Below are positions 6,395 to 55,595 of a stretch of 64,000 bases of DNA, piece by piece. Position numbers and translations under genes: made by a program. The stretch is from Polaromonas sp. (GTDB taxonomy: Bacteria > Pseudomonadota > Gammaproteobacteria > Burkholderiales > Burkholderiaceae_C), in assembly GCA_965228025.1 (NCBI GenBank), contig CBDDGX010000032.1:35113-99112 (forward strand), given 5' to 3'. Under the pieces are notes generated by a model, which had not been told where the DNA came from, did no database searches, and was given only the letters and a program-made list of their open reading frames with translations. The stretch's first letter is position 1; every line of letters begins with the position of its first letter.

Positions 6395-6404
6395 GACCCG
6401 AAGT

Positions 6405-6450
6405 GCCCCCTCGGGGGCAAAGAGCTACATGCAGTGAGCGAACGTGGGGG
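6405..6450. repeat. Short palindromic repeat, CCCCC(C)GAGGGGGC family (copy 1, partial)
   Basis: Minus strand CCCCCACGTTCGCTCACTGCATGTAGCTCTTTGCCCCCGAGGGGGC aligns by eye with the copy at 54785-54861. Confidence 0.75.
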
Positions 6451-6451
6451 C

Positions 6452-6970
6452 TCATAAAGGTCTATTTTCGTCCGGATTCGGAGCACGGCGCTGCGGCACC
6501 AGCAGCAGCACGCTCACCACAGGCCAGAGCATCGCTTCAAGGACGGGTGCTAGCACTATCAGCCAACCAGGGAACATACCGCCACCCACCATGCGGATGA
6601 TGACTTCCACGCCATGCGCGATGGCAAACAGGGGCAGCACCTGCAGGGCCTGCGACGGGACGGGAAACCACAGAAGGCGCCTGTGGATCATGGTCGCGAA
6701 AAAACTCAGCGCCGTATACGACAGCGCATGCTGACCCATCAGCGATGACTGGTGCACATCCATGCCCAGCCCAAACATGAAGGCCACGCCTATGCCTATG
6801 CGCAACGGCTGGTGCACATTCCAGAACACCAGCACCAGCGCGAGGAAGTCCGGCATCCAGGGGGTGCGTCCCAGTGGCAGCATGTCAAGCAACAGGGCCG
6901 CGATGAGGCTGCACCAGATAAAAACCGGGTTGGCGGGCAACAGCAGCTGCTGGCCTGATGGCATGATCAT
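6452..6970 (-). CDS. mreD: Rod shape-determining protein MreD
   Basis: Hydrophobic; PDFLALVLVFW and GLGMDV motifs; lies between mreC and mrdA. Start MIMPSGQQLLLP chosen. Confidence 0.92.
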   Translation of the reverse strand: MIMPSGQQLLLPANPVFIWCSLIAALLLDMLPLGRTPWMPDFLALVLVFWNVHQPLRIGIGVAFMFGLGMDVHQSSLMGQHALSYTALSFFATMIHRRLLWFPVPSQALQVLPLFAIAHGVEVIIRMVGGGMFPGWLIVLAPVLEAMLWPVVSVLLLVPQRRAPNPDENRPL

Positions 6971-35433: not shown

Positions 35434-36552
35434 TCAACTTGCCAGAACGGCCTGTTGCAAGCCATCGATCACACGCTGCGCACCGATGTCATTGAGGCAG
35501 CGCGTGTGGCCCAGCGGGCACTCACGCTCGAAGCAGGGTGCACAGTCGAGCGGCGGCATGTAAGCGGGATCATTCTTTAGCCAGAGCACCGTAGCCTTGC
35601 TGCTCAGCGGCGGCGTGTGCAGTGGGCTCGAAGATCCGAAGACCGCAACCTGCGGCACGCCAAATGCCGCCGCCACATGCATGAGGCCGGAGTCATTGCT
35701 GATGGTCGCCTTGCTTGCCGCAATCAGGCACAGCGCCTGCAGCAGCGAGGTGCGGCCTGCGAAGTTGATGCACTGGCCGGGCGCTGCGGCATTCACAGGC
35801 GCGGCGATTTCATCGCAGAGCGGGGCTTCCTTTCCGGAGCCGAGCAACACGACCGGCTTGTCGAGCTGCGCGGCCAGTTCGGAGAAATGCCGCGCGGGCC
35901 AGCGCTTGGCAGGGCCGTATTCGGCGCCTGGTGCGAACACGTAAAAACCGCCGCGCTGCAGGCCGAGTTCTGCAAGGGTGTGTTCAATATCTGCTTCGCC
36001 CATCTGCAGTTGAGGGCGATCTGTTTCCAGACCACTTTCACCACTGAGCGCGGAATAAAACGCCACCATGGGCGGCTTGTTTTTCGGGTTCTTGAGGCGG
36101 TGCGTCAGCAGGCCGACACGTGCCTCGCCGAAGTAGCCTATGCGCTCGGGAATACTCGCCAGGAAAGGCAGCAACGCGCTTTTGAGCGAATTGGGCAGCA
36201 CATAGGCTTTGTCGAATTGGCCCTGAATGCGTTTGGCAAGTGCCCGCCGCTCCCGAAACTGCAGGCCACCGTGTGCGAACGGGAATTCAATGACTTCGGC
36301 CACCTGCGGCATGGCGCGGTAGACCGGCGCGACCCAAGGCAGTGCTCCGACGGTGAGCTTTTCGCCCCGCGCCGCCAGGCGACGCATCAGCGGCTCGGTC
36401 ATGACTGCATCCCCAATCCACTGGGGCGCAATGATTAAGGAAGCCCCCCCATGACGGCCTGCGGCCGTCTCCCCCCCTGGGGGGCGCCGCTGGCGGCCCG
36501 ATGAAACCGTTAAGGCCGGTTCCGCGGCGGCCGCTTGCGGGGGAAGCGGCAC
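35434..36552 (-). CDS. waaF: LPS heptosyltransferase II (N-terminal ~35 aa repeat-derived)
   Basis: APQWIGDAVM, APGAEYGPAKRWP, NDSGLMHVAAA. Confidence 0.93.
   Translation of the reverse strand: MPLPPQAAAAEPALTVSSGRQRRPPGGETAAGRHGGASLIIAPQWIGDAVMTEPLMRRLAARGEKLTVGALPWVAPVYRAMPQVAEVIEFPFAHGGLQFRERRALAKRIQGQFDKAYVLPNSLKSALLPFLASIPERIGYFGEARVGLLTHRLKNPKNKPPMVAFYSALSGESGLETDRPQLQMGEADIEHTLAELGLQRGGFYVFAPGAEYGPAKRWPARHFSELAAQLDKPVVLLGSGKEAPLCDEIAAPVNAAAPGQCINFAGRTSLLQALCLIAASKATISNDSGLMHVAAAFGVPQVAVFGSSSPLHTPPLSSKATVLWLKNDPAYMPPLDCAPCFERECPLGHTRCLNDIGAQRVIDGLQQAVLAS
36444..36545. repeat. CCCCCC-GGGGGG palindromic repeat family (copy 2), within the waaF 5' end
   Basis: GACGGCCTGCGGCCGTCTCCCCCCCTGGGGGGCGCCGCTGGCGGCCCG...GCCGGTTCCGCGGCGGCCGCTTG resembles 55505-55567. 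Confidence 0.75.
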
Positions 36553-53686: not shown

Positions 53687-54358
53687 TTACCCCACGCAGA
53701 AGAAATCCGCCAGCGTTCGCCCCTCGTCATGCACGAAGCGCTCGTCCAAAGTGGTGACCGCTTGCATCCGGTCAATGCGAAAACTGCGAAAGGCCTGCCG
53801 CGACTCGCACCAGGCGCCCAGCGTCCAGACGGCGCCCCAGTAAAAGCAGCCCAGCGGCCACAGCACACGCTCGCTGGCCTGGCCAGAGAGGTCGCGGTAC
53901 GACACCCTGAGCTTGTGGCGTGACTGCACAGCTTCGCGCAGTTGCTGCAGGGTGTGCTGCAGGTCGGCGTCGGCAGCGATGACGGGCGCATACACCGGCA
54001 GGCTTTCGGCAGCGGCCTGCGCTGCGGCTGGCAGCACCGACAGCACCTTGCCCCATGCAGCCTGCGCATCTGCCGCCAGCGCCGGGTCCAGCCAGGCCTG
54101 TGCGAGGCGTATGGATGCCACCAGCGCACGAGCTTCGGCCTGGGTGAACATCAGCGGCGGCAAATCAAACCCCGCACCCAGCCGGTAGCCGACACCGGCT
54201 TCGCCTTCAATCGGCACGCCCTGGTGCTGCAGGTCGGCGATGTCCCGGTACACGGTGCGCGCAGACACCTCCAGCCGCTGGGCCAGAAACTATGCCGTGG
54301 TCAGGCGGCGGCCGCGAATCAGCTGGACGAGGTGGAAGAGGCGGTCTGCGCGGCGCAT
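53687..54358 (-). pseudogene. YafY-type HTH-WYL regulator with amber stop at codon 23
   Basis: MRRADRLFHLVQLIRGRRLTTA*FLAQRLEVSARTVYRD...WTLGAWCESRQAFRSFRIDRM; TAG at 54290-54292. Confidence 0.88.
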
Positions 54359-54396: not shown

Positions 54397-54933
54397 TTAA
54401 CCATGCAGTTGTAGCAACGCGGGATCTGCCTGCATGACACGCGCGATCAGGCGCATGTCGTGGTCGCTGACGGCAAACAAGCCAAACCTGAACTTGTAGC
54501 CCCAGCGCTGGCGGTCTTCTACAAAATCAAGGTCGTCGAGCAGCGGCAGGATGGACGCTTCTTTTGATTCGAGATACGAGACATCGCGCCGCCAAGCGGC
54601 AAAACCATTACCCATGACGCCGGCGTAAGGCTGGCCGGGTTGCACAACACCGATGGAGACAAAACTCTGGAACGCGTCTTTCACGCCGTAGACGACGGTG
54701 GGTGAGTAGTAGGCCACGACGTCTCCGGGCTGAATCCGTTTCAAGGGCGCGATTTTGCCGTGGTTAACCTGCATGAATCCCGAACGCCGCGCCGGGCCGC
54801 CCCAAGCAAGTTCAGCCCCCTTGGGGGGCAGCGCAACACACGAAGTGGCAAGCGTGGGGGCACATGAGTTTGAATGACGCCCAAGCCGCGCATGTTCGGC
54901 GCTGGCCACGGCTATCCAGTTTTTTCGCGTCAT
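54397..54933 (-). CDS. EVE domain protein with in-frame repeat insertion
   Basis: [10 protein letters not shown]...[32 protein letters not shown]. Confidence 0.88.
54785..54861. repeat. CCCCCC-GGGGGC palindromic repeat family (copy 3), in-frame within the EVE gene
   Basis: Coding strand CCCCCACGCTTGCCACTTCGTGTGTTGCGCTGCCCCCCAAGGGGGCTGAACTTGCTTGGGGCGGCCCGGCG. Confidence 0.85.
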
Positions 54934-54948
54934 GGCATTCACTCCCGT

Positions 54949-55326
54949 TCAAGCCAGCGCGTGCAAACCAACGCGGTTGCCATCAGGGTCGGTGATGTGG
55001 GCAAAAAAGCCCATGCCAGGTGGCAGCGCCTGGCGCGGCAGCGCAATGCGGCCACCTGCTTTTTCAGCACGCGCCAGCGCGTCATCGAGTGAAGGCGAAG
55101 CGTCCAGATAAATCAGCGTGCCCTGCGCGCCGGGTGTGGGCGCTGTCGGGCCGCACATGAGTGCGCCGCCAGTCCCGTCTGCCGCTTGGTCATAGGCAAA
55201 CACAGCGCCTTCGGATGGCCCCATGTTTTCAGGCTGCATTTTGCGGCCGAGCACAGCCTCGTAAAAGGCGGTGGCTTTGGCCAGGTTGGTGGTGCCGATT
55301 TCAAACCAGCTGATGGCGTTTTTCAT
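54949..55326 (-). CDS. VOC/glyoxalase family protein
   Basis: AISWFEI, FYEAVLG, GFFAHITDPDGNRVGLH. Confidence 0.92.
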   Translation of the reverse strand: MKNAISWFEIGTTNLAKATAFYEAVLGRKMQPENMGPSEGAVFAYDQAADGTGGALMCGPTAPTPGAQGTLIYLDASPSLDDALARAEKAGGRIALPRQALPPGMGFFAHITDPDGNRVGLHALA

Positions 55327-55409
55327 GGAAAGCTCCTTTGTTGAAGAAGCCTTGATCATGATGACCTGCTACTGACAACGTGGTGTCAGCAGGGCCTCCA
55401 CGCCAGTTA

Positions 55410-55497
55410 TTGGGGTCAGACACCAATTTTGCTGGGGTGTCTGCACCGCACCCGCAGGGCAAGCCAAAGGCTGGGCAAATTTGGGCTCTGACCCCAA
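55410..55497. repeat. 88-bp element with terminal inverted repeats (REP-doublet/MITE-like)
   Basis: TTGGGGTCAGACACCAATTTTGC vs rc TTGGGGTCAGAGCCCAAATTTGC (20/23). Confidence 0.8.
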
Positions 55498-55504
55498 AAA
55501 CTGG

Positions 55505-55567
55505 CTGCCCCCCGAGGGGGCCGCTGCGCCTGCAGCCCGGCAGAGCCGGTTCTGCGGCCGCTGCTTG
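55505..55567. repeat. CCCCCCGAGGGGGC repeat family (copy 4)
   Basis: GCTGCCCCCCGAGGGGGCCGCTGCGCCTGCAGCCCGGCAGAGCCGGTTCTGCGGCCGCTGCTTG. Confidence 0.8.
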
Positions 55568-55595
55568 AAAAGACCGGGGCGCTAGCTCAGGAATG

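Follow-up and report, generated by a model that had tools for sequence, protein, structure and literature searches.

A copy of the Beta-proteobacterial repeat element (BRE) has landed in a loop of an EVE-domain gene of Polaromonas, where it is very probably translated as a tolerated, unstructured passenger loop of 28 residues rather than as a useful peptide. The gene lies in the window, the 64,000-nucleotide stretch of DNA that was analysed here. The element, a GC-rich repeat of about 84 nt that forms three hairpins and lacks coding capacity of its own, was inserted between helix 1 and strand 2 of the protein. The insert amounts to 28 codons, none of them a stop in the host frame. The reading frame of the gene is thus preserved, and its most likely product is an EVE protein with an extra loop. 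We infer that the insert is translated and harmless. It would persist through tolerance and not because its peptide is useful, with selection acting on the flanking protein and on the nucleotides and structure of the repeat, not on the inserted amino acids.

The EVE gene, the element and the adjacent gene are located as follows.

54397..54933, minus strand: EVE-domain gene with its start ATG at 54933, encoding 178 aa; the coordinates include the stop codon
54781..54864, minus strand: BRE copy inside the EVE gene, in frame; 84 nt corresponding to codons 24-51; nhmmer E=1.3e-22, model positions 3-85
54949..55359, minus strand: glyoxalase-family gene directly upstream of EVE (Pfam PF00903)

The open reading frame extends from 54397 to 54942 on the minus strand and encodes 181 aa. 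Judged from the orthologues, the true start should be the ATG at 54933, giving a protein of 178 aa; a GGGAG ribosome-binding site is found 9 nt upstream of this codon. Against the 181-aa frame, the Pfam EVE profile (PF01878) scored 27.4 bits (cut-off 23), but it aligned with residues 52-168 only and was entered at position 21. Because the first 22 residues of the protein are conserved with the orthologues, the profile match is interrupted rather than truncated. The peptide encoded by the insert is rich in Ala, Gly, Pro, Ser and Thr. The initial annotation had noticed extra in-frame residues in this protein, and there are indeed 28 additional codons (84 nt) that are absent from the closest orthologues. 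The coordinates it proposed, 54785-54861, were close to the actual boundaries of 54781 and 54864. It had also taken the inserted DNA for a repeat, in agreement with a profile match far above chance (E=1.3e-22 within the window) and with 98 copies in the genome.

A search of 5.8 billion proteins returned 1666 EVE homologues, and we compared loop lengths in the best 120 of these 1666. A loop of equal length in orthologues without the repeat had been named beforehand as the observation that would speak against an insertion. Between the conserved G18 and the GF of GFMQ, however, 108 of the best 120 homologues have only 6-7 residues, as opposed to 34 in the window protein. The closest relatives among the best 120, P0003 (locus L021, an NCBI MAG) and P0004 (locus L026, an ENA assembly), are 89% identical over the aligned columns. 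With the loop sequences ARLGRHSIPGFMQ and ARLGRDSNHGFMQ, each is shorter than the window protein by exactly 28 residues. The gene order glcF-like, glyoxalase, EVE, WYL regulator is conserved at loci L002, L021, L023 and L024, including a genome of the same genus. The WYL/HTH regulator gene that adjoins EVE downstream in the window starts with an ATG at 54358 (MRRADRLFHLVQLIRGRRLTTA) and has an in-frame TAG at 54290-54292 (minus strand). Its orthologues read through at this position, and the listed open reading frame restarts at a GTG (54268); either the regulator is a pseudogene or the TAG is a sequencing error.

We could also observe a second filled allele (P0002, locus L023) in an independent metagenome assembly. 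It has the site, the orientation and a rare variant of the third hairpin (GAAC/GTTC) in common with the window allele; the closer relatives at L021 and L026 are empty. The EVE flanks of these two filled alleles show a dS of 1.12 and a dN/dS of 0.137, and the EVE protein is therefore under purifying selection. The 28 inserted codons are 89% identical in nucleotide sequence and have a dN/dS of 0.79, which argues that the inserted peptide is not constrained. The insert is far less diverged between the filled alleles than the flanks are. As BRE sequences are conserved across genera anyway, precise loss, independent gain and recombination of a short patch are inseparable as histories of the EVE alleles. 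A third insertion in EVE was found in a Polaromonas MAG (P0059, locus L024), where the BRE has the opposite orientation and the frame is open as well. Two further homologues have unrelated inserts in the same loop, whose total length is 28 aa in P0097 (L061 555-625; RDARFAPQPASDLWIPAADPAAPRRACG) and 24 aa in P0048 (RDAQVVPRRVDDLWPEEADPLACG). The DNA encoding P0097 at L061 contains the direct repeat CCCGGCGGC-TGA-CCCGGCGGC.

The AlphaFold2 model of the EVE protein, based on 120 aligned sequences, had a mean pLDDT of 80. Residues 24-47, placed between the helix 12-20 and the strand 52-54, remained below 50, a value that could in part be due to the presence of the insert in only 3 of the 120 sequences; the remainder scored 84-97. 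In a Foldseek search with the model, the top matches were PH1033 (1wmm, 2hd9) and MJECL36 (2p5d), with TM scores of 0.75-0.77 normalised to the target. The protein can be assigned to the EVE domain by a Pfam score above the curated cut-off together with an EVE/PUA-like fold in the model. Modelling the insertion onto this fold had been suggested as a check; the model predicts that the fold is retained and that the insert is a floppy, unstructured surface loop.

To describe the repeat family, we built a 90-position HMM from the genome's own copies (BLAST and nhmmer) and searched the 4.56-Mb assembly (G000) with it. The 98 copies comprise 52 of near full length and 46 partial ones. The partial copies are halves that stand alone and consist of hairpins 1+2 or hairpins 2+3. 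Head-to-tail arrays of four units are located at G000:C8:43729-44067, with a period of 84 nt, and at C28:249143-249484, and there are several doublets. Intergenic copies are depleted between divergent genes, with 3 observed versus about 9.5 expected from a crude gene caller that over-extends 5' ends. In the EVE copy, the three hairpins have the following positions.

54832..54854, minus strand: hairpin 1 (CGCTTGCCAC-TTC-GTGTGTTGCG), columns 11-33, compensatory changes at 16:29, 17:28 and 19:25
54815..54829, minus strand: hairpin 2 (GCCCCCC-AA-GGGGGC), the near-invariant core, columns 36-50, paired in 98-100% of copies
54782..54813, minus strand: hairpin 3 (GAAC..GC..GGG-GCGG-CCC..GC..GTTC), with the rare GAAC/GTTC stem variant, columns 52-83

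Across 44 distinct full-length copies, the three-hairpin model pairs 93% of cells, versus 37-58% in controls with the 3' partners shifted by 1-3 columns, and the observed pairing was reached by none of 500 column shuffles. Compensatory double changes occur at nine pairs. In hairpin 3, the pairs 53:82 and 54:81 are formed by 4 and 3 Watson-Crick pair types, respectively; among the 44 distinct copies, 53:82 is G-C in 28, T-A in 11, A-T in 2 and C-G in 1. Folding of the insert region as a single sequence gave z = -0.08 relative to shuffles, one GC-rich sequence being uninformative in such a comparison; it was the covariation among copies that revealed the structure. In Rfam, the whole window had no match above the gathering thresholds, and the region around the insert had none even at E<=5.

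The profile also matched two BREs from the bprJ region of B. pertussis (List S1 of PMC3110155) with E=1.6e-9 and 2.8e-9 over model positions 2-72. By this match the repeat is identified as the known BRE, and the family is not new. The blocks GGCCCCCACGC, GCTGCCCCCCGAGGGGGCT and TTGGGCGGCCCG are conserved between the genome copies and the B. pertussis BRE, while in hairpins 1 and 3 the sequence differs from that of the Bordetella element but the pairing is kept. Hot et al. (2011, BMC Genomics 12:207, PMC3110155) described the BRE as an element of about 90 bp (75-91 bp) in Bordetella and other Betaproteobacteria. They reported full and partial (about 40-60 bp) copies, head-to-tail arrays whose copy number varies between strains, and transcription as the small RNAs BprJ1/J2 in B. 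pertussis. The element was most abundant in Polaromonas-like Comamonadaceae and mostly intergenic; some copies lay within coding sequences, to which one sentence was devoted (PMC3110155). Size, full and partial copies, arrays, a mostly intergenic location with some intragenic copies, and abundance in Polaromonas are common to the published family and to the one described here. Our count of 98 copies was made by profile, whereas the published maximum, 29 copies in Polaromonas sp. JS666, was obtained by BLAST (PMC3110155). The 2011 paper contains no analysis of reading frame, encoded peptides, host-protein structure or repeated use of one loop (PMC3110155). In our literature search, the name BRE was found only in that paper, and no paper on coding copies was found.

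Within the same GTDB family, BRE DNA was present in 123 of 151 sampled genomes (122 of 150 genera), often with 85-100% identity. In coding and noncoding copies alike, nucleotide conservation is 85-100% over more than 120 genera.

Three relatives of the insert within the window had been named by the initial annotation. The one at 6405 is a true half copy, the one at 55505 has only the central hairpin, and the one at 36444 is not a BRE match at all.

6404..6452, minus strand: half BRE (hairpins 1+2), intergenic; nhmmer model positions 3-51, E=2e-4 in the window
55503..55573, plus strand: BRE-variant module with a different right arm; nhmmer matches 21 nt only (55503-55523), E=0.17

What the segment 55503-55523 has in common with the BRE is only the central C6-N3-G6 hairpin (hairpin 2). 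The module has at least 54 matches in the genome (blastn-short), many of which adjoin partial BRE matches. It belongs to a variant family with a different right-hand module and is not a BRE by profile. The BRE profile did not match at 36444 when searched against the window; the GC-rich segment 36425-36560 around this position is essentially single-copy, with two partial genome matches of 24-26 nt.

All BRE copies were screened for an uninterrupted frame flanked on either side by coding signal, and the host proteins were then checked against Pfam. For a genus-wide census of frames, the length of the open frame was rejected as a criterion, since antisense frames of real genes are also open in GC-rich genomes and would yield false positives. 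The screen revealed nine further in-frame BRE copies in Pfam-confirmed genes of this genome. Together with the EVE copy, whose host is supported by Pfam and by its orthologues, this gives an internal count of ten. The nine other hosts are listed here.

6-phosphogluconate dehydratase (edd), domain split into two stretches (Pfam)
NAD-dependent DNA ligase LigA (ligA), adenylation domain split (Pfam)
PriA helicase (priA) (Pfam)
RlmI-like methyltransferase (Pfam)
Acetoacetyl-CoA synthetase-like AMP-binding enzyme (Pfam)
CysN (cysN) (Pfam)
Sensor histidine kinase, insert in the ATPase domain (Pfam)
FtsX-type permease (Pfam)
Amidohydrolase (Pfam)

The intragenic copies occur in both orientations and encode two recurring peptides, APTLxTSCxALPPEGAxLAWGGPA in the sense frame and SAGPPQAxxAPSGGSxxHEVxSVGA in the antisense frame. 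Out of the six reading frames, these two account for 9 of the 10 internal copies (roughly P=5e-3 after correction for frame choice). Small residues make up more of the peptide in these two frames (0.60 and 0.62) than in any other, and Arg, Cys and Trp make up less (0.15 and 0.09). The two frames in which stops are rarest, with 44 and 43 of 45 copies free of them, are not used by any internal copy. The bias, seen in a small sample of 10 copies, points to selection for a certain character of the peptide in addition to a stop-free frame.

When LigA is aligned with the E. coli enzyme (4glx, 2owo), three loop residues of the latter, 162-164, are replaced by the BRE-encoded segment. Within the genus, this loop is empty in two genomes (G017 and G012, 96% identity; KLPADAPPVIEV), and two others carry the BRE there. 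A different repeat-derived peptide, HPNPLPQAGEG...SLSLGEGAGVRV (PLPQAGEG...GEGAGVRV), follows the residues IPL(W/R)LN in G005 (L065) and G191 (L067), and shorter inserts are found in two more genomes of the same genus. The EVE and ligA loops have thus each been struck several times in relatives, suggesting that tolerant loops collect insertions repeatedly.

Among about 75 BRE copies in G000 whose 5' flanks were compared, most are preceded by an A/T-rich leader that ends in ATG (AAATATG, GAATGTG, AAGATATG). About a dozen copies have this ATG in the frame of the sense peptide (ATG GCC CCC ACG, giving MAPT...), and a BRE should therefore be able to supply a start codon.

Some copies are found at the ends of proteins. 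The coding frame runs on through those at G000:C19:70133-70210 and G000:C32:184466-184544, which become the C-terminal tail of a LivG-like ABC ATPase (...AVYLGHGEEGHDAGPPQGGQAPSGGSAAHEVASVGVKGHD) in one case and of a 340-aa open reading frame (...LAPTLFTSCNTLPPEGANFSWGGPAKN...) in the other. Possible N-terminal leaders were noted at C27:80810 (Ddl-like), C29:90120, C23:184574 and C28:282065.

Other readings of the EVE insert have to be weighed against a tolerated passenger loop. The insertion might have inactivated the gene, so that the locus is a young pseudogene or yields only a truncated product starting at M54. An ATG codon (M54) is indeed found three codons after the insert, and the in-frame TAG in the neighbouring WYL regulator gene speaks for some decay at the locus. 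However, every orthologue has this M54, which is not a start specific to one lineage, and strand 1 and helix 1 of the predicted fold would be missing from a product initiated there. It seems difficult to reconcile inactivation with the conservation of the N-terminal 22 residues in both filled alleles, despite a flank dS of 1.1 and with a dN/dS of 0.14, or with a frame that is open in both of the diverged filled alleles as well as in a third, where the repeat has the opposite orientation. We therefore regard inactivation as unlikely. It is even more of a stretch to assume that the loop was co-opted, i.e. that the BRE-coded peptide aids EVE function, for example as a new interaction surface, and is kept by protein selection. 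The insert does evolve with a dN/dS of 0.79 versus 0.14 in the flanks, it is missing from the closest relatives, and it is predicted to be disordered. An orthologue with a flank dS of 1.1 shares the insert, its site and the rare hairpin-3 variant, as co-option would predict, but the conservation of BRE nucleotides (85-100% across more than 120 genera) explains this without a protein function. The use of the two frames with the mildest peptides by 9 of 10 intragenic copies also fits a useful peptide; on balance, we consider co-option very improbable.

Finally, the 84 nt could be removed before the mature protein is formed, whether as an intron-like RNA, through bypass during translation or as an intein-like peptide. 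In favour of this, there is strong structure in the element, with compensatory changes. Yet neither an intron family nor any other Rfam family was matched, 84 nt is far below the size of self-splicing introns, and the peptide has no intein motifs. Intragenic copies in both orientations would moreover be unfit for a strand-specific RNA mechanism, and we give removal next to no credence. The tolerated, translated passenger loop remains the reading that we prefer for the EVE gene. Whether BREs are more than occasional passengers and quite generally supply free-living Betaproteobacteria with new protein loops is a separate and more tentative idea, which we consider possible but rather doubtful. 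It draws on the nucleotide conservation of 85-100% over more than 120 genera, the entry into essential genes such as those of LigA and PriA, the retention almost exclusively in the two frames whose peptides are rich in small residues and poor in Arg, Cys and Trp, the reuse of surface loops in both orientations and the codon-precise gain or loss. If true, the BRE would be a tractable model outside Rickettsia for mobile DNA that seeds disordered loops, and a conserved machinery recognising the three hairpins would still await discovery.

In-frame "coding palindromes" tend to be portrayed as something peculiar to Rickettsia. The Rickettsia palindromic elements (RPEs; Ogata et al. 2000, 2002) are, as outlined in a 2024 review, hairpin repeats found in frame in unrelated housekeeping genes, with a peptide compatible with the protein fold (PMC10969869). 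A similar process in other prokaryotes is called only "conceivable" in this review (PMC10969869). RPEs are about 100-150 bp long and restricted to one genus of obligate intracellular bacteria, whose genome is reduced. The BRE described in 2011 does likewise in the genome of a free-living member of the Comamonadaceae, in at least 10 genes including those of DNA ligase and the PriA helicase. The initial annotation had drawn the analogy with RPEs, and it has been strengthened by a dispersed repeat of 98 copies, nine further Pfam-confirmed in-frame hosts and frames that are open. Both elements insert in frame into unrelated genes and keep the frame open, and both appear to place a peptide without disturbing the host fold, as far as can be judged for the BRE from prediction (EVE model) and alignment (LigA). 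By analogy, the BRE would thus work like an RPE, but we do not claim that it belongs to an RPE family, and we know of no sequence relationship between the two. They also differ in size and range, the BRE having about 84 bp and occurring in more than 120 genera of free-living Betaproteobacteria, compared with about 100-150 bp and one genus for the RPEs. The intragenic share is about 10 of 98 copies here, as opposed to nearly half for RPE-1. A modular build and a tandem copy number that differs from strain to strain, as in the BRE, are also found in the BOX elements of Streptococcus pneumoniae and the MIRU/VNTR units of mycobacteria, whose sequences and host phyla are unrelated.

The BRE and some of its intragenic copies were thus already known, and what is added here are the genome-wide in-frame copies, the frame bias and the hot loops. 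For annotation, Pfam domains split by about 28 residues of the type APTL..LPPEGA..WGGPA or SAGPPQA..APSGGS..HEV.SVGA are best taken as BRE insertions and not as new domains or assembly errors. Pairs of filled and empty alleles can serve as natural experiments on the size of insertion that a fold tolerates.

The filled and empty alleles also suggest a "selfish" mobility of the BRE, which we infer from comparing their sequences. A classical MITE was considered and rejected. The element has no terminal inverted repeats, as its 5' end (ATG-GCCCCCACGC) does not recur in inverted form at its 3' end (GCGCTGCGGCCG). The filled/empty pairs of EVE (89% identical, junction ambiguous) and ligA (96%) showed no clean duplication of the target site. 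An A-rich leader, AAAAATG, precedes GCCCCCAC in most copies. In ligA, only the filled allele has this leader, which indicates that the leader moves together with the BRE. The filled alleles have gained a net 81 nt (ligA) and 84 nt (EVE), and a few target bases therefore seem to have been replaced. We lean towards movement by a trans-acting enzyme that would recognise single-strand hairpins.

REP and REPIN sequences resemble the BRE in that they are short GC-rich hairpin repeats, mostly intergenic, depleted between divergent genes and without target-site duplication. They are, however, single palindromes of 20-40 nt or inverted doublets, whereas the BRE is a unit of three hairpins. A REP/RAYT link of the BRE was rejected, as the sole Y1 transposase gene of the genome (IS200/RAYT-type, PF01797; G000:C30:486749-487075) is flanked by a different repeat, of the TTGGGGTCAGA / AATTGGGGTCAGATTCCAATTAAT type. 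Within the window, two 31-nt arms with 87% complementarity (GCCAGTTATTGGGGTCAGACACCAATTTTGC / GCAAATTTGGGCTCTGACCCCAAAAACTGGC) form an inverted doublet at 55402-55505, which has at least 33 BLAST matches in the genome. Because the same repeat type flanks the sole Y1 gene, this doublet is likely part of a REPIN/RAYT pair that is distinct from the BRE.
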